A DNA stretch of 64,000 bases, taken from Parcubacteria group bacterium GW2011_GWA2_42_14. GTDB lineage: Bacteria; Patescibacteriota; Minisyncoccia; Sungbacterales; GWA2-42-14. A model generated the notes under the pieces. It was not told where the DNA came from. It worked only from the letters and a program-made list of their open reading frames with translations, and ran no database searches. The stretch lies in the NCBI GenBank assembly GCA_000998135.1, contig LCCV01000001.1, forward strand, positions 8,958 to 72,957. Direction: 5' to 3'. The translations under genes and the position numbers were made by a program. Of this stretch, positions 2,281 through 63,937 are shown in pieces; within the stretch, counting starts at the first letter, position 1, and every line of letters begins with the position of its first letter.

Positions 2281-5217
2281 CTACAAAACAAAATTTATCA
2301 GACGGCCAGGAATATAAATAACTTTTTTAACCGGCTTATTTTCCAAATATTTTTTTACTTTTTCACGGCTTAAAACAATTTCGGCAGCGTCTTTTTCCGA
2401 AATTTCAACCGTAACCTCAATAGAATCGCGTACTTTCCCGTTAATCTGCACCACCAGTTCAAAAATATTTTCTTGAATTAGTTTTTGGTCATATTCCGGC
2501 CATTTCTCAAAATGAATAGAATTTAATTGTTTTATATTTTGAATTTTGGAATTTTGAATTTGTTTGGGATTTGGGATTTGGGATTCGGGACTTCCAAAGA
2601 ACTGTTGATATAACTCTTCGGATAGGTGCGGCGCAAACGGCGCTAAAAGTTTTAAAAATATTTTAAGGTACTCAATGGAAACTTTTTCGGAATTTTTCTC
2701 AAACTCATTCAGCAAAATCATCAGCGAAGATATCGCCGTATTATACCGCAAACTTTCAATATCTTCTCCTACTTTTTTTATGGTTTTGTGCAACAGTCGT
2801 TCCAAATCATTTCTAATTTTGGGTTTGGGATTTGGAATTTGTTTGTAATTTGTGATTTGTGATTTATAATTTACAAAACTATATACTCTATTCAAAAACC
2901 TGTATATCCCATTTATCCCTCCGGAATTCCACGGCCCCCCTTGGTCATACGGCCCCATAAACGCCAAATACATTCTTACTGTGTCAGCGCCGTATTTTAC
3001 CACCTCCTTATCCGGGTCAATGACATTGCCGCGCGATTTAGACATTTTCTGAAAATCAGGACCCAGAATTATGCCATGATTCTTTCTGCCGGTAAATGGT
3101 TCCGAAAAATCAACAAAATTCAAATCATATAAAACCTTGATGAAAAAACGGGAATAAAGAAGGTGCATAGTATTATGTTCGGCTCCTCCTATATAAAGAG
3201 GTACGGGCAGCCATAATTTCATTTTTTCTTCGGATGCGAATTTTTGAAAATTTTTCGGATCAACATAACGGATAAAATACCAGGAAGAATCAACAAAAGT
3301 ATCCATAGTATCGGTTTCCCGTTCTGCCGGCCCATTACATTTAGGACACTTCGCACCTGCCCATTTTTCTGCCCTGGCTAAAGGAGAACGCCCGTCGTCA
3401 GTTGGCATAAAATTTTTAAGCAGGGGAAGTTTTACCGGCAAATTTTCTTCGCTGACCGGCTGCCAGCCGCACTTTCTGCAATTAACCATTGGTATGGGAG
3501 TGCCCCAATAACGTTGGCGGGAAATTACCCAATCATGAAGCCGATAATTTACTTTTCTCTCTCCCCTAACAAATTTCGCAATCTCCCACTTCGCATTCTC
3601 TGAATCCATGCCGCTAAATTCTCCGGATTCAATAAGAATTCCGCCATCAATATACGCCCGCTCTTTTCCTTCTAAGCGCACAAGCAATTCGGGAATCTCC
3701 GCGCCTCTTACAAAATCTTTTACTTTTTCTCTCTCTATCCAAACGGCATCGTGTGTTTCTGTTTCCTTTGTAGAAACCGGGAGTTTCTTATCACTCTTCA
3801 GCTCAAAACAGAGTCCGTATACCTCGGATAACCTGTTCTCGCTTTTATGCGCTGCAAAATACTTTGCATAAACGGGCGGACCCAGTTGTTTTACAAAACG
3901 AATATCCATATAGCCGGTTTCTTCTCGTATTTCCCGCATGCCTGCCCCAGCCATATCTTCCCCTTCTTCAACTCCACCAATAATAAAGGTTTGCCAATCA
4001 TATTTTTTCCACTTAAGACATAAATATTTATTTTCGTTCCAGTGTTTTACGATACACTGTACCGTTTTTCTTTTTATCGTAGACGCGCCATCGCGCGGAG
4101 GATTAGTATAATCAACAAATATAGGCGCTACAACATGACAAATAGGAAGATTATATTTCTTCGCAAATTCAAAATCCCGTGAGTCATGGGCCGGAACGGC
4201 CATAATCGCGCCGGTTCCGACATGACCCAGCACGTAATCGGCGACCCAAACCGAAATTTCTTCTTTATTGGCCGGATTTATCGCCTTTACACCTTTTAAT
4301 TCCACGCCGGTTTTTTCTTTCCCTTCGGCTATACGCTCTTCATAATTTTTAACTTTCGCTTTTTTGATATATTCAACAACTTTTCCATAATTCATAATTC
4401 CTAATTCATTATTCTTAAGGAGTGGGTGTTCCGGACCCAAAACCATGTAAGTCGCGCCGAAAAGAGTATCCGAGCGAGTCGTGAATACTTGTATCTTGTA
4501 TCCTGTATCTTGTATCTTAAAATCTATTAATACTCCTTCCGACCTGCCGATCCAGTTTTTTTGTGCAAGTTTTGTGGTTTCCGGCCAATTCAACCCTTGC
4601 ATATCGTTAATTAACCGCTCCGCGTAATCGGTTATCCGAAACATCCATTGTTCAAGTTCTTTTTTAATAACAGAGCTGTCGCACCGCTCGCAACAACCAT
4701 CAACTACCTGTTCATTGGCAAGCACGGTTTTATCCTTAGGGCACCAATTCACCATGGTTTTGGCGCGATACGCCAATCCTTTTTCGAACATCTTCAAAAA
4801 CATCCATTGCGTCCATTTATAATATTCGGGCTCAATGGTTGATACGGTTCTAGACCAATCAAAACTCGCCCCCATGCTTTTTAACTGCTTGGTCATATAC
4901 ATTATATTCTTCTTTGTCCAATCACGGGGATTAATTTTATTTTTAATAGCGGCATTTTCCGCGGGCAGGCCAAAAGCGTCAAAACCAATGGGGTATAAAA
5001 CATTGCGCCCGTTCATTCTTAAAAAACGAACGGAAATATCCGGTACGGCAAACGCGTACCAGTGGCCTATATGCAAATTGCCGGATGGATAAGGAAATTC
5101 CACCAATACCATGTAATTATTTTTCCCGGCAATCTTATCTTTCGTTTCATAAAGCTTCTGTCCCTGCCAGATTTTCTGCCACTTCTTCTCAATTTTTGAA
5201 GAATTATACTTCACCAT
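2281..5217 (-). CDS. leuS: Leucyl-tRNA synthetase carrying an internal Nudix-hydrolase domain.
   Basis: Class I HIGH motif (PSGNLHIGH), KMSKS, the editing-domain TTRSDTLFGATY box and the RQRYWG motif are all present. The start is placed at the ATG giving MVKYNSSKIEKKWQKIW. Residues ~411-560 hold a perfect Nudix box, GGVEEGEDMAGAGMREIREETGY. Confidence 0.95.
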   Translation of the reverse strand: MVKYNSSKIEKKWQKIWQGQKLYETKDKIAGKNNYMVLVEFPYPSGNLHIGHWYAFAVPDISVRFLRMNGRNVLYPIGFDAFGLPAENAAIKNKINPRDWTKKNIMYMTKQLKSMGASFDWSRTVSTIEPEYYKWTQWMFLKMFEKGLAYRAKTMVNWCPKDKTVLANEQVVDGCCERCDSSVIKKELEQWMFRITDYAERLINDMQGLNWPETTKLAQKNWIGRSEGVLIDFKIQDTGYKIQVFTTRSDTLFGATYMVLGPEHPLLKNNELGIMNYGKVVEYIKKAKVKNYEERIAEGKEKTGVELKGVKAINPANKEEISVWVADYVLGHVGTGAIMAVPAHDSRDFEFAKKYNLPICHVVAPIFVDYTNPPRDGASTIKRKTVQCIVKHWNENKYLCLKWKKYDWQTFIIGGVEEGEDMAGAGMREIREETGYMDIRFVKQLGPPVYAKYFAAHKSENRLSEVYGLCFELKSDKKLPVSTKETETHDAVWIEREKVKDFVRGAEIPELLVRLEGKERAYIDGGILIESGEFSGMDSENAKWEIAKFVRGERKVNYRLHDWVISRQRYWGTPIPMVNCRKCGWQPVSEENLPVKLPLLKNFMPTDDGRSPLARAEKWAGAKCPKCNGPAERETDTMDTFVDSSWYFIRYVDPKNFQKFASEEKMKLWLPVPLYIGGAEHNTMHLLYSRFFIKVLYDLNFVDFSEPFTGRKNHGIILGPDFQKMSKSRGNVIDPDKEVVKYGADTVRMYLAFMGPYDQGGPWNSGGINGIYRFLNRVYSFVNYKSQITNYKQIPNPKPKIRNDLERLLHKTIKKVGEDIESLRYNTAISSLMILLNEFEKNSEKVSIEYLKIFLKLLAPFAPHLSEELYQQFFGSPESQIPNPKQIQNSKIQNIKQLNSIHFEKWPEYDQKLIQENIFELVVQINGKVRDSIEVTVEISEKDAAEIVLSREKVKKYLENKPVKKVIYIPGRLINFVL
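2534..2597 (-). repeat. Repeat family A, (GGGATTT)n / caaattcaaaattc, inserted in-frame in leuS.
   Basis: The DNA gaattttggaattttgaatttgtttgggatttgggatttgggatt encodes SPESQIPNPKQIQNSKIQNIKQ. Other copies occur at 2815-2875, 19921-19982, 27031-27146, 51183-51230 and 58164-58232. Confidence 0.8.
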
Positions 5218-5312
5218 ACTATTTACCATAATCAATAAATCGGACATTGACAAGATACAGCTTTTGTGGAACATATCTATCAGGACTTTAAAAAAATGGG
5301 GGCCGTGATTTC

Positions 5313-5828
5313 GTGAAAAAACCAAACATTGAGGAACTAAAAACGCTTCTTTTTGAAATTGGAAAAATTACCCAGCAGCAGCGCATCACCCTTGAATACG
5401 GCCTCAAAGACGAAATGAAAAAACTGAATACGGAATTTAATGAAAAAATAACCGAATGGTCTCAAAAATATAACATCGGAATCTGTGTTGCCGAAACCAT
5501 GCGCTATGTTGAACCCGAAGGAAATCATTTTTATTTCACGCCTCCTCATACGCATTGGCGCCCGCGGGAATCGGGCTCTCCCTACTACCGCGAAAAATAT
5601 AACGCCGAACTGGTTGTTTGTTGTAAAATAGATTTTTCCCGAGGGCACGCCGAAATACTTCCGGACGGAATTAAAGCAATCGTCACGGCAATTCCGGAAG
5701 AATATCAGGAAGAAGACCGCGGAACAGAAGACGAAACGCCGCCGAACCCCTTTAATACTCTTTCCGATAAAGATTTTTTAAAATCCATCGGAATTAAGGA
5801 TAACGAAGAAAAAAAAGACGATAAATAA
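5313..5828 (+). CDS. Hypothetical protein.
   Basis: A 171-aa ORF followed by a strong terminator. Confidence 0.4.
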   Translation: MKKPNIEELKTLLFEIGKITQQQRITLEYGLKDEMKKLNTEFNEKITEWSQKYNIGICVAETMRYVEPEGNHFYFTPPHTHWRPRESGSPYYREKYNAELVVCCKIDFSRGHAEILPDGIKAIVTAIPEEYQEEDRGTEDETPPNPFNTLSDKDFLKSIGIKDNEEKKDDK

Positions 5829-6959: not shown

Positions 6960-8456
6960 TTATTTTAGCCGCGGGAATAAATTCCCTCCTTTTTTTATTT
7001 TCAAAATCGAATCATCAACCAATATTTGTTTCTTAATTTTTTCAACTGTTTCCGGCAAAAATGGCGCAAGTAAATTGACTATGGCGCCGATTATATAACT
7101 TACGTTTATTATTATACCACGAAGCTCCTTTTTGTCGCTAATGCCCCACGGCTTTTTATCGTTTATATATTTATCGGCAAAAGAAACAAGCTCCCAAATT
7201 GAAGCTAAGGCCTCATTCAAACGGATTTCTTCAAAGCATGCTTCATATTTTTTGAATGTTTTTTCGGCAATTTCTTTCACACCACTCTCAACGTCCTTCT
7301 GGAAATCAAAATTTATCGGGCTTATTTTTTCTCCAAGAGTCGCAACCCGCGCCACCAAATTTCCAAGGCCATTTGCCAAGTCGCCGTTATAACGGTCTTC
7401 AAATTTTTTGTACGAAAAATCGCCGTCCTCTCCCGAAGGAATTTCACGAAGCAAAAAGTAGCGCACCGAATCCGTTTCGTATTTTTTTACCAATTCTATC
7501 GGATCAATGACGTTGCCAATGGTTTTAGACATTTTTTGGCCTTCAACTGTAACAAAGCCGTGAACAAAAATTGCTTTAGACAAAGAAAGCCCAGCCGACA
7601 AAAGCATTCCCGGCCAAATTGCGGCGTGAAACCGCAAAATATCCTTGCCGATTACGTGCAAATCTGCTGGCCAAAGTTGCTCAAATCCATAATTCCTAAT
7701 TCCTAATTCATAATTCTTCTCTTGGCCGTAGCCGATTGCCGTAATATAATTCGCCAAGGCGTCGCACCAAACATACATAGTATGCTCGGGGTCATTCGGC
7801 ACCGGAATTCCCCACGATAAATCTTTCCGGGGACGCGAAAAACTCACATCCTCCAGTCCGGATTCAATAAGCGATAAAATTTCGTTTTTTCGGGATTCAG
7901 GAATTATTCTTAATTCATTATTCCTGATTCTTAATTCAACTTCTTTGGAATACTTTGAAAGTCGGAAAAAATAATTTTCCTCCTCAATAACTTCCGGCTC
8001 TTTTTGGTGGTCGCGGCATTTGCCTTGAACCAAATCTTTTTCCGTAACAAACGCCTCATGCCCAACGCAATAAAGCCCGCGATACTTTTTCTTATACAAA
8101 TCGCCTGCTTCAAAAAGTTTTAGCCATAATTTTTGCGCTCCTGGCCAATGGCGTTTTTGGTCAGAAGTTCTTATGAAGTCATTCCACGACAAATTAAGAA
8201 CATTTTTAATTTTAAGTTCCCTAAATTTTTCTGAATTCTCATCCACAAAATCTTTCGGGTTTTTTCCCGCCGCTTCCGCGGCTCTTGCGATTTTCGCGCC
8301 GTGTTCATCGGTTCCAGTCAAAAACCAAACATCATCGCCTTTTATACGATGGAAACGGGCCAAAACATCCGCCTGAATTTTTTCCAAAGCATGCCCGATA
8401 TGCGGTTTGGCATTTACATAATCAATTGCTGTTGTAATATAATACTTGCTTGACAT
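6960..8456 (-). CDS. metG: Methionyl-tRNA synthetase.
   Basis: N-terminal ITTAIDYVNAKPHIGHA (HIGH), KMSKT, and an anticodon-binding C-terminus. Start placed at the ATG giving MSSKYY. Confidence 0.95.
   Translation of the reverse strand: MSSKYYITTAIDYVNAKPHIGHALEKIQADVLARFHRIKGDDVWFLTGTDEHGAKIARAAEAAGKNPKDFVDENSEKFRELKIKNVLNLSWNDFIRTSDQKRHWPGAQKLWLKLFEAGDLYKKKYRGLYCVGHEAFVTEKDLVQGKCRDHQKEPEVIEEENYFFRLSKYSKEVELRIRNNELRIIPESRKNEILSLIESGLEDVSFSRPRKDLSWGIPVPNDPEHTMYVWCDALANYITAIGYGQEKNYELGIRNYGFEQLWPADLHVIGKDILRFHAAIWPGMLLSAGLSLSKAIFVHGFVTVEGQKMSKTIGNVIDPIELVKKYETDSVRYFLLREIPSGEDGDFSYKKFEDRYNGDLANGLGNLVARVATLGEKISPINFDFQKDVESGVKEIAEKTFKKYEACFEEIRLNEALASIWELVSFADKYINDKKPWGISDKKELRGIIINVSYIIGAIVNLLAPFLPETVEKIKKQILVDDSILKIKKGGNLFPRLK
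7688..7717 (-). repeat. Repeat family B, AATTCCTAATTCATAATTC, in-frame in metG.
   Basis: Encodes KNYELGIRNYGF. Further copies occur at 7903-7938 in metG (NNELRII), at 4386-4420 in leuS (NNELGIMNYG) and at 27526-27548 inside the tmRNA. Confidence 0.75.
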
Positions 8457-8519: not shown

Positions 8520-9011
8520 ATGCTAAAATTCATCTGGGGGCTCTCCATTTTCACAATTCTCTCACTCTTAACTCTCGCGCTTAATAATCAGGAAAGTATC
8601 AATAAATGGCTTCATGCGCCAAAGCCAGAAGTTCAGAAAATAAAACAGAGCTCGCCCGCTACCGACAAAACCGGACAAAATTCTATCGTTGATAAAATTA
8701 TCAAACAATCCCGGGAATTAAAGGCAAAAAATTTAGAAACGGAAAAACGTATTGGTGATTTTCGAAAGAACGTAGATATTAAATGCACTTTCATGGTAAA
8801 AGCCGAGGATTGCGAAAAGTTTATAGCGATGCTGACCAGTGACGAAGAGGTTATTGATATCTTCAAAAAACTATCAAAAAGCGGGGTTGCTTTATGGATA
8901 TATTACTCATTCGGAACTAGAAATGAAATTTATCTTGACCAGAACGGCAACCTTATAATGACGCAAAAGGCGGATATTTCTAAAATAAGAAAATTTTTAG
9001 GGGTAAAATAG
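8520..9011 (+). CDS. Secreted or membrane-anchored protein, paralogue A.
   Basis: N-terminal signal/TM (MLKFIWGLSIFTILSLLTLA), a PATDKT motif, and a C-terminal KKFLGVK that it shares with the 9806-10294 ORF. Confidence 0.5.
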   Translation: MLKFIWGLSIFTILSLLTLALNNQESINKWLHAPKPEVQKIKQSSPATDKTGQNSIVDKIIKQSRELKAKNLETEKRIGDFRKNVDIKCTFMVKAEDCEKFIAMLTSDEEVIDIFKKLSKSGVALWIYYSFGTRNEIYLDQNGNLIMTQKADISKIRKFLGVK

Positions 9012-9045
9012 GCGCCATTCCGGCGCTCTTTTTTTATTTTCAATA
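9011..9045 (+). terminator. Intrinsic terminator.
   Basis: Stem gcgcc-attcc-ggcgc followed by tctttttttatttt. A byte-identical copy follows paralogue B. Confidence 0.6.
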
Positions 9046-9088
9046 TTTACCGCGCATATCAAAATCCGCCAACAGACGGATTTTGAAA

Positions 9089-9805: not shown

Positions 9806-10294
9806 ATGAACAGAATCAGCGCGATTTTAGCATCCCTTGCCGTAATTCTCGTATTTTCCATGTTTATTTTTCCAAACTTTTTTTTCGGCGATAAAGTCCA
9901 AAAAATTCAAGAAATCAAACAGGGCGCGCCTGCTACCGATAAAACCGAAACGAGCTCCCGGCCGGCCAACCAGGCCCGCCTCAACGAAATTATTCAAATG
10001 GCGGAATCAGCCAAACAAAAAGAAAAAGATTTAAACGCGAAGGTTGACGAATTGGCTAAAGCAGTCAAATGCGCCAATACCCTTGAATCGATTTTTTGCG
10101 ACAATACATTAAGAACCCTAGCTCGTGATAAAAAAGTCGCGGAAAGTCTTATCACGCTTTCTAAATCAATACCCATTGTCATCACCGTACACCTATACCC
10201 TTTTGGCAGCATCTATGTCAGTAGTGACGGTTGGCTCATTATAACGGAGGAACCGGATATTGAAGGAGTCAAAAAATTTTTAGGGGTAAAATAG
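9806..10294 (+). CDS. Secreted or membrane-anchored protein, paralogue B.
   Basis: Signal/TM at the N-terminus, the PATDKT motif and the same KKFLGVK C-terminus, with a duplicated promoter and terminator. Confidence 0.5.
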   Translation: MNRISAILASLAVILVFSMFIFPNFFFGDKVQKIQEIKQGAPATDKTETSSRPANQARLNEIIQMAESAKQKEKDLNAKVDELAKAVKCANTLESIFCDNTLRTLARDKKVAESLITLSKSIPIVITVHLYPFGSIYVSSDGWLIITEEPDIEGVKKFLGVK

Positions 10295-10330
10295 GCGCCA
10301 TTCCGGCGCTCTTTTTTTATTTTCAATATT
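10294..10330 (+). terminator. Intrinsic terminator, an identical copy of the one at 9011-9045.
   Basis: Sequence taggcgccattccggcgctctttttttattttcaatatttacc. Confidence 0.6.
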
Positions 10331-10555
10331 TACCTGCGAGCGCGAACCAAAGGGCAAGGCGCGAGCAGTTGTAAATATTGAAACGAGCACTCAATTTAAA
10401 ATCGTGTATTTCTTGTATCAAAACATTTGCTTTCGCGCGTTTTATTGATAAACTTAATTATTATGTATACTAAGCTCAAATTGAATGCTCGGTGCTCAAT
10501 TTTCTAGCATCTCGGCTTCGCAAGCAAGATTGTTTGCCTCGCTAAGAAAATTAGC

Positions 10556-12197: not shown

Positions 12198-12290
12198 GCG
12201 CCATTCGCCAATCAGTCGCGAATTATTTCGCAAATGGTTTGATAAACTCACCATAAATATTCGCGAATAAAATTAGAGATTGATTAGAGA

Positions 12291-17874: not shown

Positions 17875-17950
17875 ATCGCTAATCAATCTCTAATTTTATT
17901 CGCGAATGGTTCGACAAGCTCACCATAAATATTCGCGAATGAATTCGTGT
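17875..17950. repeat. Element of about 80 bp with terminal inverted repeats, one of three copies, sitting immediately upstream of minus-strand gene starts.
   Basis: Sequence cgctaatcaatctctaattttattcgcgaatggttcgacaagctcaccataaatattcgcgaat. Near-identical copies occur at 18497-18570 and 12215-12290. The terminal IR is ctaatcaatctctaattttattcgcgaa / ttcgcgaataaaattagagattgattag. Confidence 0.7.
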
Positions 17951-17961
17951 TTGATTCGTGA

Positions 17962-18495
17962 TTATATACCCATTATATCATACTTTGCCCCAAAATGACT
18001 CGCCACCGCCATTTTAATTGATTCTGGCGTAATGCCCGGAGAAGGAAGAAGGCCAAAAATATGAAGAAATCCCGCGTTAAACTCAAACAATATTTTTTCT
18101 AATCCCGGCCCATTTTGAACATCAACCGTATCTAATCTTTCCAACGTTAAATGCATCAAATCAAAAAGGCGCCCATCGCCCCTTTCTTCAAAAACATTGG
18201 AGTCAGTAAGATTAACAATATAAAAAGCGCATCTCAATTTATTCAAATTGCCTCTTAGGTCAATAAAAAAATCCTTGACTTCGGCTGAAGTAATACGGTA
18301 AAAATTTTTTCCAATGACAAAACTTATGGCCGAGTGAGTCAACGGCTCCAAATGCCCCTTAAGCTTGGCCGCTTCTTTTCTCACTCCCTGCGCCATTACT
18401 TTTATTTTCCCGAAATCCTTGGTCAAAATCGTAATCAACAAATCCGCCTCGCCATAAGGTTCTTTTTTTAAGATGATGCCCTCTGTACTATGCAT
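17962..18495 (-). CDS. recO: DNA repair protein RecO, short form.
   Basis: N-terminal OB-fold signature EGIILKKEPYGEADLLITILTKDFGKIKVMAQGVRK. Confidence 0.6.
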   Translation of the reverse strand: MHSTEGIILKKEPYGEADLLITILTKDFGKIKVMAQGVRKEAAKLKGHLEPLTHSAISFVIGKNFYRITSAEVKDFFIDLRGNLNKLRCAFYIVNLTDSNVFEERGDGRLFDLMHLTLERLDTVDVQNGPGLEKILFEFNAGFLHIFGLLPSPGITPESIKMAVASHFGAKYDIMGI

Positions 18496-18595
18496 ACTCG
18501 CTAATCAATCTCTAATTTTGTTCGCGAATGGTTCGACAAGCTCACCATAAATATTCGCGAAATAATTCGCGATTGATTAGTGATTTTATTATCGC

Positions 18596-18894: not shown

Positions 18895-21800
18895 TTACCA
18901 TCCGTTTTCTACTTTTGTTTTGTTGTTTTGATACTCCCTGAATGATAATTTGTCAATCCCCGCCCAAACTTGCTTGCCTTCAATCTCCAGATCGCACTCG
19001 GCTTTAAAAATCTTTTTTCCGCCGATGTAAAATTCTTTAGCGCCCGCTTCAGCCATAATAAATTTTTTCCATTTTTCCAAAACAATATCTAAATCCGGAG
19101 CGACTTTGAGATTCCTCGCTTCGCTCGGAATGACGCCGAAGGGGTTCGAAATGATACCGGAAGAAAATTGTACCCGGATTTTATCTCTGGGATGAAGTCC
19201 TAAATCTTTACGCATTTCCTGAATGTTTCTGACAATTTCACGCATCATTCCTTCTTCTTTTAATTCCGGCGTAATCACCGTATCAAGTTTCAATTCTTTC
19301 CCAAAGGTGATTTCTTTCACATTCACTTCTTCTTTAATCAATTCTAATAAATCCTTGCGGAGTTGTCGGTTGTTGGTTGTAAGTTGTAAGTTGGCAAGCG
19401 GCTGTCTTACTTTAATCCCCACCTCGGCTCTTAACTTCAGCGCCTCGGCAACAACCTTTCGTACTGTTTCCATGTCTTTGAAAAGTTTCTTATCGCCCTC
19501 AGTCATCCTGAGCCGCAGCGAAAGATCTTTTGAGATTCTTCGCCCCGCTGCGGCTCCGCTCAGAATGACACCCGAAGAGGGCCACTCCGCTAAATGTACG
19601 CTCTCCTCCTCGAGTCGTATTTTTTTTCTCAATTCCCGCCATATCGCATCGGAAAGAAAGGGAATAAACGGCGCTGTTAATTTTGAAAGCTGTACTAATA
19701 TATATGCTGTTGTTAGAGCCGCCTCATTTTTTTCAACAATTGTTTTTGGTTTCTGAAATCTTCGCCTAGAACGTCTCAAATACCAATTGGAAAAATCATT
19801 AAGAGTAAATTCTTCAATTGCCCGCGCCGCCCCGGTAATATCATATTTATCAAGTTTTTTTGTGACTTCAACAGCCAAATTTTCCAATTTTAAAATAATC
19901 CATTGATCAAGGAAGTTTCTTTTTTTTGAATTTTGAATTTTGAATTTGTTTGGGATTTGGGATTTGGGATTTGGGATTTTATCTATGTATGTATCAAAAA
20001 ACACAAAACTGTTCCAAAGCGTTCCTAAAAATCCCCGAAGTTTTACCTGCAAATCTTTCTCATCAAATTTTTTTGGCTCACCCGGGGAATTAATCGTATA
20101 AAAATACCAACGTATGGTATCCGCCCCGTATTTATTAATCATATCCTTGGGGTTAATCACATTGCCCTTGGACTTAGACATTTTCTGTCCGTTCTTATCA
20201 AGCACGTGCCCAAGCGATATAACATTTTTATAAGGCGCGCCCTTTCCAAGAAGCGTTGCTACGGCAAGCAAAGTATAAAACCACCCTCGCGTCTGGTCCA
20301 CCGCCTCTGATATGTAGTCGGCCGGATACAATAATGTTGTTGGTTGTTGGTTGTTGGTTGTTGGTTGTTTTGCGAAAGGCCAATGACCTTGAGCAAATGG
20401 CATAGCGCCCGAATCAAACCATACATCAATTATCTCCGGAACTCTCTTCATTTCTCCCCCGCATTTTTTACAAGAAAAAACAACGGCATCAATATAGGGC
20501 CGGTGGAGATTCACAGCGCCGGTAAAATCCCGCGGCAAATTTTTTAACGGCAAATCAAGCGTTTCGGCAAAAAAAATAAAATCATCTTCACGCTTCCCCA
20601 TATGCTCACGAATCGTTTCTTCATTAGACCAGCCCAAGGCCCCGCTAAACATCATCCAAATCGGATATTCATGGCTTACAATAAGAATAGTTTTTCCGGA
20701 GTGTTTTTGTTCCATATCCGCCATAAAATCCATAATCCTCGCCCTAAGCTCCGAAAGAGTTTCACCGTTAGGGGGGCGTTTCGTAAATTTTTCCAGATGC
20801 GATGAAAAATAACTATGATACATATGGTCAGGCCTTTCGTGAAAATCACCGACATTCACTTCCTGAATCCTTTTGTCAAAATGAACCGGAAGTTCAATAA
20901 TTTTTCCGACAATTTCCGCGGTTTCCCTTGTTCGCAAAACCGGCGAAGAAATAATCAAATCAATACCCCTTTTTTTCAAAAGACCGGCTCTTTTTTCAGC
21001 TTGGACTCTGCCTTTCAGCGTCAAAGGATGTCCGTCAATAGAACCGCAGAGATTTTTAATATTGGAAAGCGACTCGCCGTGACGCATAACCATATATTTA
21101 TTTCTGGCGACACCGCTCCTTTCATGAAGTTCTTCAAGAGAACCGACGGCCTCAATATTTTCACATTTCCCGCACCTCCATACCGGCAAGGGCGTTCCCC
21201 AAAATCTCTCACGAGAAAAAGCCCAATCGCGGACTTCCCGCAAAAATTCACCGAAACGGCCGTCCTTGATATGCTCCGGCATCCAATTTATTTTAAAATT
21301 GCCTGACAATAATTTTTCTTTCAGCACTGTCATTTTTATCCACCAGGCATTTTTTGCAAAATACAAAAGCGGCGTATCGCACCGCCAGCAATGCGGGTAA
21401 TCATGCTCATGCGGTTTTACAAAAAATAGCAGATTCCGCTTCTTCAAATATTCAATAATGTCGCGGTCCGCGGTTTTTACAAACTTTCCTTCGCCGACAA
21501 TTCCTTTTTTAACCGTGCCGTCAACATTTACCGTGTGCAGTATCGGATAATTTAGCTGAACGTCATTCTGAGCCACAGGCGAAGAATCCCCTCCTTGAGA
21601 TCCTTCGCTTCGCTCAGGATGACGATAATACGACTTTACCGCCCGCATATCATCATCGCCAAACGCCGGCGCTATATGCACCATGCCCGTTCCTTCCTCC
21701 GTAGAAACAAAATCTCCTGGTATAACGCTAAACCCCGGAGGACTGCCCAAAAAATATTCTTGAGGAACGCTGAATAACGGTTCATATTCCGTCCCCAGCA

Positions 21801-22722: not shown

Positions 22723-23109
22723 TTATTTCCAAAGAATCGCCACCAAGGCGCAAACCAAAAATAACAGCGCAACAACCATATTTTTAGCCGGCAGTTCTCC
22801 CAGATAAAGCCATGCCGTAAAAAACATTATCAAGATGCTTGAAAACCAAACCGTAAGCTGAACAAGCCAAACCCTCTCCGAAAACACGTTATGATACCCA
22901 TACCAATAAATGTATGAGTTCAATACACCCATGGGAATAAAAATCGGCAGAAGAATAATGCAATAACCCAACCAAAAAGTCCCGATATTAGGAAATCGCA
23001 TACCTAAAAGTTCAAGTTTAGCGGCGTTTTGTATCTGCCAAAAGACGACGATATTGCCTATAACCTGAACAGCGCTTGCCAGGAAAAAAATCCATAACCA
23101 ACCAAGCAT
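22723..23109 (-). CDS. Membrane protein, hypothetical.
   Basis: A 128-aa ORF with four TM helices. Confidence 0.4.
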   Translation of the reverse strand: MLGWLWIFFLASAVQVIGNIVVFWQIQNAAKLELLGMRFPNIGTFWLGYCIILLPIFIPMGVLNSYIYWYGYHNVFSERVWLVQLTVWFSSILIMFFTAWLYLGELPAKNMVVALLFLVCALVAILWK

Positions 23110-23111
23110 TT

Positions 23112-24740
23112 TTACATCTTCTCCGGCTTAGAAATTCCTAAAAGACCTAATATATTATGTAACACAATTTGAGTTGAGCTGACAAGAACAAGGCGCGCGT
23201 TTTGCAATTCTAAATTTTCAGACAAAACATGCTGCTTTTCGTAAAAATTATGAAAAATTTTGGATAGCTCAAGAGCGTATCGCGTAAGGCGTATAACCTG
23301 AAAATCGCCCGCTGTATCTTCAACAACTTCCGGAAACTGCATCAGTTTTTTAATCAGCATCCGTTCCTCGTCCGTATTTAATAATTTAATAATTTGAATT
23401 TTGCTTGCCCGCCATAGCTTTAGCGAAGGCGGGGATTTTCCCAATATACTACTACATCTTACATACGCATACTGGACATAATACACCGGATTCTTCATTG
23501 ACCTTTCTTTGGCCAATTTCATGTCAAAGTCCATGTGGGTATCGGGCGAATGCATCAAAAAGAAAAAACGCGCCGCGTCCGGCCCCACTTCTTTTATCAA
23601 TTCCTCAAGCGTGATAAACTCTCCCCGGCGCTTGGACATTTTCACTTCTTTGCCGTCTTCAATCAGCCGCACCAGCTGGGTAATTATTATTTTTATTTTA
23701 TCTTGGCCGATGCCAAGCGCCTTCAACGCCGCGACCAAGCGGGGGGCGTAGCCATGATGGTCGGCCCCCCAAATATCAATTACTTTATCAAACTTGCGGA
23801 CCTTAAATTTATTCCAATGGTAAGACAGGTCGGGAAGGGCATATGTCGGCTCCCCTGTTTGCCTGACCAAAACACGGTCTTCAGTATCCCCGTATTCTTT
23901 TGCTTTAAGCCAAAGCGCTCCGTCTTTTTCGTAAACCAGGTTTTTTTTCTTAAGTTCTGCTTGTATTTTTTTTACAAGCCCGCTTTTATAAAGAGATTCT
24001 TCCGAAAAAAACTTATTAAATTTAATTTTAAAAATGTTTTCAATATTCACTTGGTTTTCTTTCTGAATTTTTTGCGTTAAAGCAAAACCGACTTCCCCCT
24101 CCATATTTCTCGGATTTTTTGACTTAATTTCTGAAATAATTTTTCTGAATTCCGGGCTTTGAAACTTTTCTTTTACGTATGGCGAAAGATAGCTCATTCC
24201 CCTGCCCAAAGCCGTTTTCCCCAATTCTTTAATTTGCGTGCTGGATTTGGCGTCGTTAATATAATATTCACGGCAAACCTTGGCGCCGAAAAATTCAAGA
24301 ACATTCGCAAGAACATCCCCCAAAAAAGCGCCTCTAGCATTTCCCATGGTAATAGGGCCTGTCGGATTGGCGGAAATGAATTCTATATTTATTGATTGTA
24401 GTTTGTGGATTGTGGTTTGTGGTTTACCATAAATGTTTTTCTTCTTTAAAATCTCTTGAAACTCGCTCTCAAGCGTCTCTTCTGATAATCGGAAATTAAT
24501 AAAACCGGGCGGAGCTGTTTCCGCCTCCCACATTCCACCCCCCACATTCTCTTTAAGAATACCCGCGATTTCCAACGGATTTTTATTCAAAATTTTAGAC
24601 AAAAGCAGGGCGATATTAGCGGAATAATCGCCGTGCGCCGGATTTTCCGGCGCCTCAACCAAAAATTCCGGCATTAAAATATTGCCGAATTTTTCAACAA
24701 CGGCTTTAAGAACGGCTTTTTTGATTTCTGTTCTAATCAT
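23112..24740 (-). CDS. argS: Arginyl-tRNA synthetase.
   Basis: EFISANPTGPITMGNARGA and a C-terminal NPVYYVQYAYVRC segment are standard ArgRS signatures. Confidence 0.9.
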   Translation of the reverse strand: MIRTEIKKAVLKAVVEKFGNILMPEFLVEAPENPAHGDYSANIALLLSKILNKNPLEIAGILKENVGGGMWEAETAPPGFINFRLSEETLESEFQEILKKKNIYGKPQTTIHKLQSINIEFISANPTGPITMGNARGAFLGDVLANVLEFFGAKVCREYYINDAKSSTQIKELGKTALGRGMSYLSPYVKEKFQSPEFRKIISEIKSKNPRNMEGEVGFALTQKIQKENQVNIENIFKIKFNKFFSEESLYKSGLVKKIQAELKKKNLVYEKDGALWLKAKEYGDTEDRVLVRQTGEPTYALPDLSYHWNKFKVRKFDKVIDIWGADHHGYAPRLVAALKALGIGQDKIKIIITQLVRLIEDGKEVKMSKRRGEFITLEELIKEVGPDAARFFFLMHSPDTHMDFDMKLAKERSMKNPVYYVQYAYVRCSSILGKSPPSLKLWRASKIQIIKLLNTDEERMLIKKLMQFPEVVEDTAGDFQVIRLTRYALELSKIFHNFYEKQHVLSENLELQNARLVLVSSTQIVLHNILGLLGISKPEKM

Positions 24741-27032: not shown

Positions 27033-27159
27033 AATCCCAAATTCCAATTTCCAAATCTCAAATAAATTCTAAAATCAAATGTTCAAAATTTTTTTTGAAT
27101 TTTGGATTTCGGTAATTCGATATTATTTAGGATTTGATGCTTAGAATTTGGGATTTCAC

Positions 27160-27205
27160 CCCCCGAAATTATTTAATCGCGATTAAATAATTTCGGGGGG
27201 TGACA
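27160..27205. repeat. Perfect 21-bp-arm palindrome whose right arm is the 5' acceptor strand of the tmRNA.
   Basis: Sequence caccccccgaaattatttaatcgc|gattaaataatttcggggggtg. Confidence 0.7.
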
Positions 27206-27653
27206 GGCTTCGACAGGTCATTGAAAGCATTAAAAATCGGGTGGAAGACGTGGAGTAACTTCCTAAAATAATCTTCACAAAAATAAGTGCAAACTTATTG
27301 TCACGAGCAAAAGCAGTTTTTGCGTCAATTTTTGACACAACCGACTCATTTGCTCCAGCTTTTGCCTAACGGTAAAAGCGACTTGTTGCGATAGTAATAT
27401 CGCAACCATCGTCATAACTGGCGCTTGACCGGTTATCAAACGGTGTCATATACTCAAGCTTAATCGATTGATTTTTTCGGGATTAGTCGATGACAAATTT
27501 TCCGAAAGGGATTATGAGTGTTTTGCCTAATTCATAATTCATAATTCCCTGCCCCGAGTTAAATCGAGGGGTTAAACAATAATTCGGCTATCGCCCGTAC
27601 AAATTTTTGATGTAATATGCATCTGGACATGGGTTCGATTCCCATCACTTCCA
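27195..27653 (+). ncRNA. ssrA: tmRNA (ssrA).
   Basis: The 5' end GGGGGUGACAGGCUUCGACAGG matches the tmRNA consensus. The 3' end has a T-arm (auggg-UUCGAUU-cccau) followed by an acceptor strand CACUUCC and a discriminator A, then the sequence continues UCG, so no CCA is encoded. The acceptor stem pairs with a G3.U70 wobble, the Ala identity element. A resume-codon context AAAUAAGUGCAAAC resembles E. coli AAUAGUCGCAAAC. The gene lies immediately downstream of smpB. Confidence 0.8.
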
Positions 27654-27667
27654 TCGAATAAAAATAA

Positions 27668-44715: not shown

Positions 44716-44785
44716 CCGACAACCAACAGCCAACAACCAACAACACAAAAAGTTGTAAGTTGTAAGTTGTAAGTTGTAAGTTGTT

Positions 44786-50695: not shown

Positions 50696-52534
50696 TTATT
50701 TCAAAAACTTCAGCATTTTTTCAAGAGACCATCCGTTGATAATATCCTTACGTTCCGCCCATCCTCTTCTGGCTTGCGCAATTCCAAACTCCAACATTTT
50801 AAAATGCTGAATTGAATGCGCATCAGAATCAATTGACATTTTTACTCCTGCCCTAACGCATTTTCTAATATATTCATCTTTTATATCGGCGCGATTAGGA
50901 TACGCGTTGACTTCCAAAATGGTTCCGGTACGTTTCGCGGCCGCGATAATTTCATCAATATCCAACTCAATCGGCTCGCGTTTATTGATAAGACGACCGG
51001 TAAGATGAAAAATAATATCAACATTCGTATTTTCCATGGCGCGGATAATGCGTTTGGTTTGTTCTTGGCGCGAAAGGTTAAAATGACTATGAACGGCCGC
51101 GCCAACAACATCCAATTTTGCCAAAACCTCGTCTTTGATGTCCAGCTCACCGTTTTTCCCAATATTTACTTCCGCTCCCTTTAATATTTTGAATTTGGAA
51201 TTTGGAATTTGTTTGGAATTTAGCTTGTCTATATATGCCATTTGTTTCAAAAGTTTCTTCTCGTCCGAACCGCCGGTCATGGCAAGGGAACGGGTATGGT
51301 CCGTAATCACAATATATTGAAGTCCGGCTTCCATAGCCGCTTTGGCCATTTCTTCAATAGAATTTTCTCCGTCGGTCCAATCGGTTTGAACTTGCATATC
51401 GCCTTTTAAATCGCCATATTTGATTAAATCCGGTAGCAAGGGCCCGACCCGTGCGCGACCAAGGTCGGACCTTGCATGTATAACGAGTTTACCCTGAGCA
51501 TGTCGAAGGGCCGCTTCAATTTCTCCTGTATTTTCACGCATTTCCGGCTCGATATAACTAAGTCCAAGGGCCTTATATAATTCTTCCTCGGTTTTTCCGG
51601 CAACCAATATCTCCGCTGAACCACGCAGACCGTTTCCGCGACTGTCTGCGTCCTGTCCGCGTGAGTCCGCGCTTCGAAAGAGACCATATTCATTAAGCTT
51701 CCACCCTTTCTTAATCGCAATTTGCCGCAAAGCGACATTATGGTCTTTTGAGCCGGTAAAATAATTAAGGGCCGCGCCGAATGATTCCTTTGGCACGACG
51801 CGCAAATCCGCATCAAGACCATTTTTTAATTTCACGGCTGTTTTGGTTTTGCCGTGCGCGTAAACATGGGCAATAAAAAGCAAACCCAGAAATCTCTCCA
51901 TTACTATTTCCGGCTTTGATGACGTAACCAAAATATCAATATCACCAATGGTTTCTTTGCTCCTCCTAACTGAACCGGCCACAACCGCCTTTTCAACTTC
52001 GGGAAACGACTGAATCATTTTTTCAAGCGTACGAATTTCCGGCAAAATAAATCCCAAAACAGCTCTTCCGCCGGATTTTTTCAAAAATTCAATTCCTTTT
52101 AAAATTTTTTGCTCTGATTTATCTCCAAAGTGTTCAAGTTTCCGGATTTTCCCGGCTTTAGCCGCTTTTTCCAAATCCGCCAAGTTGCGAATTCTTAATT
52201 TCTGCCATAGTGTTTTTACCATTCTGGGCCCAACGCCTTCCACCGCAGTCAATTCAGAAATATTCACCGGAATTTTTTTCTTCAATTTTTCATATTCGTC
52301 AAAATTTCCTTTTTCCAAAAGCTGTTTGATATGAAAAGCAATTCCTTTTCCCACGCCGGGAATTTCCAAAAGAGCTTTTTCTCCTCCTTCTTTATAAATT
52401 TCTTTTACTTCTTGAGCAAGCGATTCAACACCCAATGCCGCCTTCTCATAAGCGCGCGGTTTAAATAAAACTCCTTCCATTTCGTACAATACAGCCATCT
52501 CATTTAATATTTTAGCAATCTCACTATTGGTCAT
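50696..52534 (-). CDS. Family X DNA polymerase with a C-terminal PHP domain (PolX).
   Basis: N-terminal HhH motifs (LLEIPGVGKGIA, LTAVEGVGPRMVKTLW), the palm motif GSVRRSKETIGDIDILV, and a C-terminal PHP region (HARSDLGRA, ITDHTRS, HSHFNLS...DSDAHS). Confidence 0.85.
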   Translation of the reverse strand: MTNSEIAKILNEMAVLYEMEGVLFKPRAYEKAALGVESLAQEVKEIYKEGGEKALLEIPGVGKGIAFHIKQLLEKGNFDEYEKLKKKIPVNISELTAVEGVGPRMVKTLWQKLRIRNLADLEKAAKAGKIRKLEHFGDKSEQKILKGIEFLKKSGGRAVLGFILPEIRTLEKMIQSFPEVEKAVVAGSVRRSKETIGDIDILVTSSKPEIVMERFLGLLFIAHVYAHGKTKTAVKLKNGLDADLRVVPKESFGAALNYFTGSKDHNVALRQIAIKKGWKLNEYGLFRSADSRGQDADSRGNGLRGSAEILVAGKTEEELYKALGLSYIEPEMRENTGEIEAALRHAQGKLVIHARSDLGRARVGPLLPDLIKYGDLKGDMQVQTDWTDGENSIEEMAKAAMEAGLQYIVITDHTRSLAMTGGSDEKKLLKQMAYIDKLNSKQIPNSKFKILKGAEVNIGKNGELDIKDEVLAKLDVVGAAVHSHFNLSRQEQTKRIIRAMENTNVDIIFHLTGRLINKREPIELDIDEIIAAAKRTGTILEVNAYPNRADIKDEYIRKCVRAGVKMSIDSDAHSIQHFKMLEFGIAQARRGWAERKDIINGWSLEKMLKFLK

Positions 52535-56899: not shown

Positions 56900-57045
56900 C
56901 CTAATACGGGGCTGTCCCAAAACTGTCATTCCGAATTTTGTAAAGAATCTCAATTATTTAGAAACGGCTTAAATACAAGATTCTTCGCTTCGCTCAGAAT
57001 GACGAAAATACTGTTTTCGTAGTTTTGGGACAGCCCCAATACATA
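56900..57045. repeat. Composite inverted-repeat element of the GTCATTCTGAGCGAAGCGAAGAATC family.
   Basis: Outer arms ggggctgtcccaaaac / gttttgggacagcccc. Inner arms tgtcattccgaa / ctcagaatgacg flank attcttcgcttcgctcagaatgac. Confidence 0.6.
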
Positions 57046-57113: not shown

Positions 57114-58424
57114 TCAGAAGAGGCTCGCCTGTTTGGAAATCTCTCTCCTCTCCCCTTCCTCGAAAATTCTCACTTTGCCGTAAAGACCGTCGTAGCCGGG
57201 CTCTATATGAAGCCGCCCCTCGCGAACCCGCATAATACCCTCAACAATTTCCGGCTTAATTTTTCCTTCAAGGTCAGCGCGGGAAACATCAAATAGTACC
57301 GATATCTCGTTTCCGAATTCAGCAACAATATTCTTAAACTCCTCCTGAATTTTTTTTGTCGTAGCCGAAGCAACCCCTAATGACTCGGCAATAATCTCAT
57401 CAAGCGGAACCATATTTTTATACGGAATCGCTTTTTCCGGTTTAAATCCTTCAGATTTAAATCCTTCCGGTCTATCCGCCAATTCTTCCACACGGCTCAT
57501 CACTCCCACGGTAACCTTTTTTCCGCACTTGGGGCAAAGGCCTTTTAATTTTCTGGTTTCTTCGGGAGCAAGCCTGATATTGCAATCCCTATGGCCGTCA
57601 TAGTGATAAATCCCCTCTTCCGGAAAAAATTCTATGGTGGAAAGAAAACGTTTGGGGTCTTTAGATTTTATTGCTTCAATAATCCCGTTATATGAAAGTT
57701 CTGCGTCAAAAATATTCGCTTCTCGCCCAATGCGTCTTAAAGAATGGCTGTCGGAATTGGAAATCAGCGCATATTTATCAAGCGCTGAAACCCGCCAATT
57801 CATGGCCGGGTCACTAGACAAACCCGTTTCCAGAGCAAAAATATGCTTTGAGTACTCATCAAAACATTCTTCAATTGAATCAAAACCGGATTTGGAACCG
57901 AACACGGAAAACCAAGGGGTCCATATATGCGCCGGAACAAAAAAACAATTGGGGTCGGCATTTAAGACAATCTTCAAAAGCTCTTTAGAATCAAGCCCCA
58001 AAATCGGCCGGCCATCGGATTTAATATTTCCGCGGATATTCAACTGCGCGTTTATTTTTTCCGCCGTCTCAACTGACGACGCAAAAATCAGATTGTGAAT
58101 TCTTCTAACCTTCCCGCCTTTGGAATAAATGCTTGAAATTTCCACCGTCAGCATAAAACGCGTTTTGGAATTTGAGTTTTGGTCATTTGAATTTATTAGG
58201 GATTTGGGATTTGGGATTTGGGATTTTAGTTTAAAGATTCCTTGCTCCGCCGGCTCCAGTTTCTCTTTAATTTCTTTTATCCATTTAGGATGCGTAAAAT
58301 CTCCAGTCCCCATAACCGTAATTCCCTTGAGCCCTGCCCAATAATCCAAATTCTCCAAAGTCATTTCTTTGGAAACCGCGCGCGCGTATGGCGAATGAAT
58401 ATGAAAATCAGCAATTATTCTCAT
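57114..58424 (-). CDS. PHP-domain protein with a Zn-ribbon (EndoQ-like / TIGR00375-type).
   Basis: MRIIADFHIHSPYA marks the PHP N-terminus; the HIWTPWFSVFG, DSHSLRRIG and CPKCGKK motifs follow. An in-frame repeat A insertion, KSQIPNPKSLINSNDQNSNSK, is present. Confidence 0.5.
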   Translation of the reverse strand: MRIIADFHIHSPYARAVSKEMTLENLDYWAGLKGITVMGTGDFTHPKWIKEIKEKLEPAEQGIFKLKSQIPNPKSLINSNDQNSNSKTRFMLTVEISSIYSKGGKVRRIHNLIFASSVETAEKINAQLNIRGNIKSDGRPILGLDSKELLKIVLNADPNCFFVPAHIWTPWFSVFGSKSGFDSIEECFDEYSKHIFALETGLSSDPAMNWRVSALDKYALISNSDSHSLRRIGREANIFDAELSYNGIIEAIKSKDPKRFLSTIEFFPEEGIYHYDGHRDCNIRLAPEETRKLKGLCPKCGKKVTVGVMSRVEELADRPEGFKSEGFKPEKAIPYKNMVPLDEIIAESLGVASATTKKIQEEFKNIVAEFGNEISVLFDVSRADLEGKIKPEIVEGIMRVREGRLHIEPGYDGLYGKVRIFEEGERREISKQASLF

Positions 58425-63837: not shown

Positions 63838-63937
63838 CCCTTTCGTAACCTATAACTTACAACAAACAACGTACAACACATAACATAATAAGTCGTTTGT
63901 TGTTGGTTATCGGTTGTTGGTTGTTAGTTAGGCCTTC

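Follow-up and report, generated by a model that had tools for sequence, protein, structure and literature searches.

The 64,000-nucleotide stretch of contig LCCV01000001.1 from Parcubacteria group bacterium GW2011_GWA2_42_14, a tiny inhabitant of groundwater, that is analyzed here (the window) contains an ileS gene whose product, an isoleucyl-tRNA synthetase (IleRS), harbors an additional enzyme domain that is assigned by sequence profile, catalytic core and predicted fold to branch 1 of the histidine phosphatase superfamily. The host appears to be an otherwise normal housekeeping IleRS of type 2, and the domain, a small phosphatase of the PhoE/CobC/PspA type, is nested in a surface loop formed by the zinc knuckle of its connective peptide 3 (CP3). 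The architecture is ancient and clade-wide in the Parcubacteria, where relatives of the domain are also encoded by a separate gene next to ileS or fused to other enzymes of tRNA charging or modification. As a whole, the data are best explained by a competent nested phosphatase, engaged in a clade-wide partnership with synthetases, that acts on a phosphate of a ligand of the charging reaction, and this explanation is given about an even chance of being correct. Aminoacyl-tRNA synthetases (aaRS) with a nested accessory hydrolase are already known as a kind; here the fold is known and the combination is newly described. The sequences became public in 2015 and the domain is recorded in their automatic Pfam annotation; full-text literature searches turned up no paper on a histidine phosphatase that forms part of an aaRS or stands beside one.

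A histidine phosphatase domain within isoleucyl-tRNA synthetase

An earlier reading of this DNA, made from the sequence only, had proposed an IleRS with an internal branch-1 histidine phosphatase domain between two stretches of native synthetase, and this is borne out by profile searches, residue conservation, the predicted fold and comparison with canonical IleRS. The Pfam profile PF00300 (His_Phos_1) matches residues 533-695 over profile positions 3-170 of 194 (E = 6.2e-35; 121.1 bits against a cut-off of 21.7), and the excised insert scores 125.7 bits. The motifs quoted in the sequence-only reading are all found (RHGESLSN at residues 535-542, SSPVLRTRETAEIV at 580-593 and ILIVSHEYPI at 667-676), and the active site is intact. 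Conservation was assessed in 81 sequences, the window IleRS and the best 80 loci of the genome scan described below, where R535, H536, G537 and H672 are present in 81/81, R585 in 80/81 and E609 in 79/81, the other two having Asp. A signature specific to this subfamily, consisting of N529, Y531, E673 (79/81), Y674 (75/81) and W677 (80/81), is also conserved. In one fragment (P0023) a Tyr replaces the second catalytic His (ILIVTYEGP).

The closest solved sequences are those of CobC (6NRU, 1e-12), PhoE/YhfR (1EBB and 1H2E, 4e-12) and the phosphoserine phosphatase of Hydrogenobacter (4IJ5), and the RHGET, REIxLG and THG/SHG motifs of the solved phosphatases align with RHGES, QEVNVG and SHE in the window domain. 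An AlphaFold2 model of residues 476-770 gave a predicted local distance difference test score (pLDDT) of 88.4 and a predicted template modeling score (pTM) of 0.87, with a pLDDT of 93-98 in the insert, and in a model of residues 1-1200 (pLDDT 86.4, pTM 0.83) the insert, at 82-96, was modeled with a confidence equal to that of the IleRS body. A Foldseek search returned PspA, GpgP, CobC, PhoE and a histidine phosphatase of the riboflavin pathway, all with a probability of 1.0 and TM scores of 0.72-0.79 on the target.

To judge from profile scores, the domain belongs to no curated functional subfamily. The NCBIfam scores are 91 for dPGM_arch (NF038349, cut-off 225), 87 for RNase H/acid phosphatase (cut-off 326), 80.7 for PspA (NF045917, cut-off 350), 79.8 for CobC (TIGR03162, cut-off 162.9), 30.6 for SixA (TIGR00249, cut-off 74.5) and 27.6 for TIGR01258 (also compared for dPGM, cut-off 81.7), and assignment to dPGM, CobC, PspA, GpmB or SixA was rejected because each score is under its curated cut-off. 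The ERHYG and HGN motifs of dPGM are also absent, with QEVNVG and SHEYP standing in their place. The label PGAM-like given in the sequence-only reading thus holds at the level of the superfamily and fails for dPGM itself.

The host enzyme and the site of insertion

The core motifs of the synthetase are all intact, namely the HIGH-like PGIHH, the TTPWT and GTGMVH of the editing domain and KMSKS, and Pfam recognizes tRNA-synt_1 in two stretches (the first at residues 25-524), Anticodon_1 at 927-1097 and DUF5915 at 1133-1219. With class I signatures, editing motifs in CP1, Anticodon_1 and a DUF5915-type C-terminus, the protein has the features expected of a type-2 IleRS, and its best matches in the PDB are the Thermus thermophilus enzyme (3.7e-226) and an IleRS of 1032 residues (1e-224), with the 921-residue type at 1e-92. 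It is 100% identical to a protein cluster annotated as isoleucine-tRNA ligase of GW2011_GWA2_42_14 (P0121), which is found on nine contigs and has PF00300 in its precomputed Pfam list. A second ileS was not found in the 64-kb window.

Alignment with T. thermophilus IleRS (1ILE, E = 3.7e-226) places residues 18-524 on 9-480 and residues 726-1046 on 489-797, such that about 200 residues of the window IleRS occupy the place of about 8 in the Thermus enzyme. The insert is flanked by CGKC and CKKC, which correspond to the Thermus zinc knuckle (the first pair to VCQAC), and the first Cys pair is conserved in 75 of the 81 sequences. Some insert-bearing IleRS (P0005, P0007, P0018, P0006, P0022 and P0033) have lost one or both of the CP3 Cys pairs and kept the phosphatase. 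The knuckle belongs to the IleRS subdomain CP3, downstream of the CP2-3 linker RDWxxSRxRYWG (PMC7191050), and in yeast IleRS this linker lines the pocket that holds the CCA end of tRNA or reveromycin (PMC7955072).

The boundaries of the insert were set by insert-less relatives, in which a segment ending in GSxAELxKxxG runs straight into LPxDxxGEVNLHRPYVD, and this sets the insert at residues 525-716, in place of which the insert-less relatives have 0 extra residues. The span given in the sequence-only reading, 20542-21114 or residues 525-715, is thereby confirmed and refined to 20539-21114. Its estimate that canonical IleRS has only 15-20 residues between the flanks agrees with the 16 that separate EL from LHRPY in the insert-less relatives. 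The positions of the features are collected in Table 1.

Table 1. Coordinates in the window of ileS, its nested domain, neighboring genes and leuS.
Feature	Position	Strand	Details
ileS, type-2 (T. thermophilus/eukaryote-like) IleRS, 1263 aa	18895..22686	-	Single uninterrupted open reading frame
Nested His_Phos_1 domain, 192 aa (aa 525-716)	20539..21114	-	Pfam; boundaries from insert-less relatives
RHGES motif: R535, nucleophile H536, G537	21070..21084	-	Aligned with RHGET of PhoE/CobC
LRTRETAE motif: second phosphate-binding arginine R585	20914..20937	-	Conservation
IQEVNVG motif: general acid/base E609	20848..20868	-	Aligned with REIHLG of PhoE
SHEYPIW motif: second catalytic histidine H672 and subfamily-specific E673, Y674, W677	20656..20676	-	
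First Cys pair C505-G-K-C508 of CP3 zinc knuckle	21163..21174	-	Shortly upstream of insert
Second Cys pair C739-K-K-C742 of CP3 zinc knuckle	20461..20472	-	Downstream of insert
LPRDFTGAVNLHRPYID, native IleRS segment resuming right after insert	20488..20538	-	Present in insert-less P0174, P0192 and P0215
CP2-CP3 linker RDWAFSRERFWG	21196..21231	-	28 residues upstream of insertion point
KMSKS of synthetic site	20170..20184	-	Intact; downstream of insert
argS	23112..24740	-	Upstream neighbor of ileS
recO-like gene	17962..18495	-	Downstream neighbor of ileS
leuS (LeuRS)	2281-5325	-	NUDIX aa 440-535 = 3721-4008; Nudix box 3910-3978

Distribution, codivergence and loss

The combination of IleRS and phosphatase is not peculiar to its source genome. 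One genome per GTDB species was scanned with two insert-specific peptide patterns built from an alignment of three sequences, a scan that is biased to the subclades supplying the patterns, and it gave at least 599 matches and at least 564 relatives confirmed by tblastn. The best 80 matches are all metagenome-assembled genomes (MAGs) of Patescibacteria/Parcubacteria, the complete genome CP011209 included, and they span Sung-, Jorgensen-, Nomura-, Wolfe-, Yonath-, Portnoy-, Taga-, Lipton-, Campbell- and Yanofskybacteria; some MAG labels (uncultured Candidatus Saccharibacteria, Spirochaetia) are depositor-given and may be generic or mis-binned. Among the matches listed, the closest, with 66% identity, comes from a Sungbacteria genome. 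At each of the 80 loci checked, the N-terminal part of IleRS, the insert and the C-terminal part lie in one frame and in that order. The insert has a mean pairwise identity of 44% and the IleRS core one of 52%, with a correlation between them (r = 0.63), and therefore the domain codiverges with its host under purifying selection.

PF00300 is carried by 116 of the 120 best full-length homologues. The four IleRS that are without it stand at four separate places within the insert-bearing clade of a neighbor-joining tree (726 core columns), and no phosphatase gene adjoining ileS was found at their loci; the domain is therefore dispensable and has been cleanly lost at least four times. The gap between argS and ileS in insert-less relatives contains small unannotated open reading frames of 93-114 aa.

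The free-standing form beside ileS

In sister lineages the phosphatase is a protein in its own right. The nearest free homologues (P0012 and P0009), of about 185 aa and 38-42% identical to the domain, have genes that directly precede an insert-less ileS on its upstream side, the one overlapping ileS by 4 bp and the other separated from it by 23 bp. The order at these split loci, argS-hisP-ileS-recO-DUF11, where hisP is the free phosphatase gene, is that of the window with hisP placed between argS and ileS. In the window the same place is taken by an open reading frame for a predicted membrane protein of 128 aa (22723-23109, minus strand).

A metagenome scan with an alignment of the free forms yielded 80 loci, some of them too short to judge. 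The hisP gene is directly upstream of ileS and on the same strand at 51 of these and further upstream at 2, while the domain is nested in ileS at the exact CP3 site at 15 and its gene is adjacent to ileS and convergent with it at 5 or more. At the 32 loci with an assignable start codon the median spacing of hisP and ileS is 1.5 bp, with 14 overlaps of which 7 are of 4 bp. The fused and split states are strongly clustered on neighbor-joining trees of the phosphatase or of the N-terminal part of IleRS (4-7 changes, compared with about 24 when labels are shuffled), and a second fused group has the NNYFILRHGEA signature of the free type at the identical position in CP3. The free forms are strongly basic: their net charge per 100 aa has a median of +9.9, compared with +1.75 for neighboring open reading frames of the same loci (5th-95th percentile, -1 to +6). 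The median of the fused domains is +1.5, and that of the main fused clade 0.0 (Mann-Whitney p = 1.5e-8).

Other insertion sites and host enzymes

When 1.84 billion cluster representatives were searched exhaustively by HMMER, with the insert as query, 14,184 hits were obtained. The best 150 of these include 85 IleRS or IleRS fragments and 56 free-standing proteins (at most 260 aa), and 88 of the 150 are fused to an aaRS or to TsaC. Several IleRS contain two copies, which are in tandem around a DLHKxxVD strand in P0305 and P0369, in CP3 and in the first loop of the anticodon-binding domain (site B) in P0285, P0375, P0341 and P0368, and after the second Cys pair and after WFESG...HYPF in P0306. 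Copies are also found in other enzymes: P0254 is a ValRS (best PDB match 1GAX, 6e-70) with at least four, P0324 (locus L173, 5001-7070) a complete ArgRS with one at its C-terminus, and P0287 (locus L172, 977-2140) a Sua5/YrdC protein (TsaC, of the t6A pathway) that also has one at its C-terminus. The neighbors of the Sua5 fusion were examined and gave no informative context. The R-H...R...E...H set is kept in every copy of the multi-copy variants. IleRS, ValRS, ArgRS and Sua5/TsaC all use ATP and release pyrophosphate (PPi) and AMP, and the fusion partners are thus without exception ATP-dependent, adenylate-forming enzymes of tRNA charging or modification.

The Nudix domain of LeuRS

The second synthetase in which a hydrolase had been noticed, the LeuRS encoded by leuS, does contain a Nudix domain (E = 1e-8), and its Nudix box, GGVEEGEDMAGAGMREIREETGY, is a perfect match. 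The domain is nested in the C-terminal part of the CP1 editing domain and is weakly similar to RppH and Ap4A hydrolase. Three other protein clusters combining an editing domain with NUDIX were found, and the free Nudix homologue (P0397) is not adjacent to leuS. The LeuRS-Nudix combination is a separate event, much younger than the insertion in IleRS. The proposal that the lineage has a strategy of its own for placing hydrolases within class I synthetases has partial support: the histidine phosphatase does recur in IleRS, ValRS and ArgRS, whereas the Nudix domain is rare, lies at another site and has an unlinked free homologue.

Repeat families in the window

Several families of short repeats lie within coding regions of the window, those of ileS and leuS included. 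Copies of a GC-rich hairpin repeat, 'GAGCGAAGCGAAGGATCTC...', are located at 21559-21621, 19492-19557 and 19108-19125 in ileS and at 56977-57011. In ileS they are in frame and encode HPERSEGSQGGDSSPVAQNDV, GAAAGRRISKDLSLRLRMTEGD and ..SEARNL.., segments that 76-80 of 80 homologues lack and that are modeled as disordered (pLDDT <50). For the copy tested, at 21560-21620, strong hairpin folding is predicted on either strand (z about -4.2). Rickettsia palindromic elements also lie inside protein-coding genes, and the 'GAGCGAAGCGAAGGATCTC' repeats resemble them.

A repeat of 65 nt, 'TTGAATTTTGAATTTTGAATTTGTTTGGGATTTGGGATTTGGGATTT', is found at 2529-2593 and 2808-2872 (leuS), 19915-19979 (ileS), 27092-27156, 51178-51242 (a polX-like gene) and 58162-58226. 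It is in frame in essential genes, where it encodes IPNPKSQIPNKFKIQNSKK-like peptides, and on the plus strand only, which is antisense to the host genes, it can fold into a 24-bp hairpin rich in G-U pairs (-13.4 kcal/mol, z = -4.5), the mRNA strand being unstructured. Other IleRS have a second phosphatase domain in the loop where the ileS copy of the 65-nt repeat lies. Two more families of short repeats within coding regions, 'GTTGTTGGTTGTTGG', which encodes QPTTNNQQPTT, and 'TCCATAATTCATAATTCC', occur at 19361-19393 and 20335-20381 (ileS), 44751-44783 and 63891-63937, and further at 4384-4416 (leuS), 7686-7718 and 7907-7939 (metS), and 27524-27556. The short-repeat copy at residues 774-784 of IleRS is disordered in the model, and the same loop hosts a phosphatase domain in P0306.

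The window also contains a tmRNA gene of 461 nt (27196-27656, plus strand), recognized by Rfam with 117 bits and missed by ARAGORN. It holds a 'TAATTCATAATTC' repeat at 27524-27556 and has a copy of the 65-nt repeat just upstream, and insertions of these repeats may have enlarged it. The recO-like gene stands between two intergenic repeats of 92 nt (17876-17967 and 18498-18589, 92% identical), of which a third, partial copy lies at 12227-12271. A separate pair of 100-nt repeats (8952-9051 and 10235-10334, 84% identical) has at its end a terminator-like GC hairpin with a T-run after it.

Proposed role and alternative explanations

If the domain follows the chemistry of its family, H536 would attack a phosphomonoester gripped by R535 and R585, with E609 protonating the leaving group and H672 supporting the phospho-histidine intermediate. 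More broadly, a subfamily of phosphatases appears to have formed a Parcubacteria-wide partnership with class I aaRS, chiefly IleRS, that takes interchangeable forms: a translationally coupled upstream gene, insertion in CP3 or in other loops of IleRS and ValRS, and terminal fusion to ArgRS or Sua5/TsaC. The synthetase would provide proximity in the fused formats, and the free form would gain it through its strongly basic surface. Such a charge would suit a free enzyme that has to locate a polyanion (RNA) or attach to the synthetase unaided, the need for it being relaxed upon tethering, and is suggestive at most. We infer that the partnership is functional and not merely syntenic because the insertion points are independent, the copy number has expanded, four different hosts are involved and the adjacency to ileS has survived inversion. 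With less assurance, the substrate may be a phosphate borne by one of the ligands in the charging reaction, most likely a nucleotide or the 3' end of tRNA, and the location of the insertion point downstream of the linker that lines the CCA-end pocket counts in favor of this.

A more specific proposal, which is unlikely to be right in this form, is that the embedded or coupled phosphatase is a cleaner of tRNA 3' ends that strips a 2'- or 3'-phosphate from A76 of tRNA(Ile), and elsewhere of tRNA(Val) or tRNA(Arg), and so permits charging. Toxins of the toxSAS family add a 3'-pyrophosphate to tRNA (bioRxiv 10.1101/2021.04.30.441581; PMC11559606), and a phosphate on A76 could stem from partial hydrolysis of that group or from cleavage by a ribotoxin. 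The Nudix domain nested in LeuRS, which resembles RppH and Ap4A hydrolase, could supply a complementary pyrophosphohydrolase step. Were this so, it would represent a new class of activity resident in aaRS, serving tRNA repair or defense against toxins.

Several observations weigh against a functional partnership or against the substrate suggested for it. At least four lineages have lost the domain with no adjacent replacement, as judged from a tree without bootstrap support, all of the trees being neighbor-joining trees on modest alignments. The L173 locus keeps the domain with argS while ileS is absent from it, and the linkage could thus be partly inherited synteny. The sites of insertion, in CP3 and in the anticodon-binding domain, lie at a great distance from each other in the synthetase, and free-standing forms exist as well; a precise geometry relative to the tRNA 3' end is therefore not essential. 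All of the characterized structural neighbors act on small metabolites, and a literature search found no report of a branch-1 histidine phosphatase that acts on RNA ends. Finally, the surplus of positive charge in the free forms is diffuse over the domain, with no focus on the pocket, and it could equally serve binding to IleRS or reflect composition.

The main rival to a functional partnership is that an everyday phosphatase or mutase of small molecules (for instance the phosphoglycerate mutase of the cell, a phosphoserine phosphatase or a broad-specificity PhoE) stood beside the ancestral ileS of the Parcubacteria and was captured into permissive loops as a metabolic hitch-hiker, its link to IleRS being merely one of co-expression or stoichiometry in a streamlined genome. 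This is possible, though doubtful. It accords with the best NCBIfam similarities (dPGM_arch, PspA, CobC and GpmB) and with the closest structures, which are all metabolite phosphatases, but no equivalog cut-off is reached and the motifs of dPGM are missing. Adjacency in the conserved order argS-hisP-ileS-recO could yield a fusion to either neighbor, such as the one to ArgRS, but does not account for at least four internal sites of insertion, for tandem or fourfold copies, for a ValRS as host or for the fusion to Sua5. That the insertion loops of the window IleRS also take junk repeat DNA (residues 774-784 and 904-922) shows them to be permissive, and the domain has been cleanly lost several times; on the other hand, a metabolic enzyme has no obvious need for a charge of +10 per 100 aa that is relaxed upon fusion, and 88 of the 150 nearest representatives are fused to an aaRS or TsaC.

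Every fusion partner uses ATP and releases PPi and AMP, and the domain might hydrolyze PPi, AMP or other nucleotides and in this way pull the activation of the amino acid or of threonylcarbamoyl forward. This is quite unlikely: we know of no branch-1 histidine phosphatase that is a pyrophosphatase, hydrolysis of AMP would be wasteful in a salvage-dependent organism, and the basic charge of the free forms would be unexplained. A role as a protein phosphatase that guards the synthetase, by removing from IleRS or neighboring translation factors an inhibitory phosphorylation introduced by HipA/HipT-like or eukaryote-type Ser/Thr kinases, is very unlikely. The superfamily does include the protein phosphatases SixA, PGAM5 and Sts-1, Hip-type kinases target aaRS and the nearest structures include phosphoserine phosphatases, but the SixA score is 30.6 against a cut-off of 74.5, a conserved kinase gene was not found at the hisP/ileS loci examined, and to our knowledge no kinase targets IleRS. 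Hardly any credence is given to a non-functional feature, be it an assembly chimera, an intein-like mobile insertion, a spacer derived from a decayed pseudo-enzyme or a known IleRS insertion of another fold, for which the unusual position alone speaks. An assembly chimera is ruled out by the continuous frame and by the same architecture at 80 of 80 loci from independent assemblies, and an intein or mobile insertion by the codivergence of the insert with its host and by Pfam analysis of the whole protein, in which no Hint or endonuclease domain is present. A pseudo-enzyme and an insertion of another fold are ruled out by the invariant catalytic residues and the high-confidence predicted fold.

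The partnership, as preferred here, points to an undescribed phosphate-removing step at tRNA charging in ultra-small symbiotic bacteria or else to a striking consolidation of enzymes in minimal genomes. The separate gene, the nested domain, the multiple copies and the clean losses also make up a natural series for studying the origins of nested insertions, and CP3 and three other loops are marked as permissive sites for the engineering of class Ia synthetases.

Comparison with known systems

The body of T. thermophilus IleRS (1ILE/1JZQ) is collinear with that of the window IleRS in its catalytic, editing and anticodon-binding parts, and the two have the same four CP3 cysteines and DUF5915 in common; the Thermus enzyme differs in having about 8 residues where the window IleRS has an enzyme domain. 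The phosphatases PhoE/YhfR (1EBB, 1H2E), the alpha-ribazole phosphatase CobC (6NRU, 6E4B), the phosphoserine phosphatase PspA/iPSP1 (4IJ5) and GpgP (Rv2419c, 4PZ9) are of the same predicted fold and of similar size (about 190-210 aa), and share with the window domain the RHG...R...E...H set at 20-25% identity. They are, however, free-standing and act on metabolites, whereas the window domain is nested in a synthetase and has its own signature of SHEYPIW, N529 and Y531. The bifunctional RNase H/acid phosphatase (Rv2228c type, NF005567), the second-best NCBIfam similarity of the domain, sets a precedent in that a CobC-like histidine phosphatase is covalently linked to an enzyme of nucleic acids, although there the phosphatase is fused terminally to RNase H and not nested in an aaRS.

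The nested catalytic modules known in aaRS, which are exceptionally well studied enzymes, are editing domains that hydrolyze mischarged aminoacyl esters. Like the window domain, the CP1 editing domain of IleRS, ValRS and LeuRS and the INS domain of ProRS add a second hydrolase site by way of a connective-peptide loop of the enzyme, in CP1 from the Rossmann fold, and editing modules are also free-standing in other lineages, in the form of YbaK- and AlaX-like trans-editing factors. The editing modules are of another fold, act on aminoacyl esters and, in the case of CP1, occupy a different connective peptide, whereas the domain in CP3 of the window IleRS would carry out the chemically unrelated hydrolysis of phosphomonoesters through a phospho-histidine.

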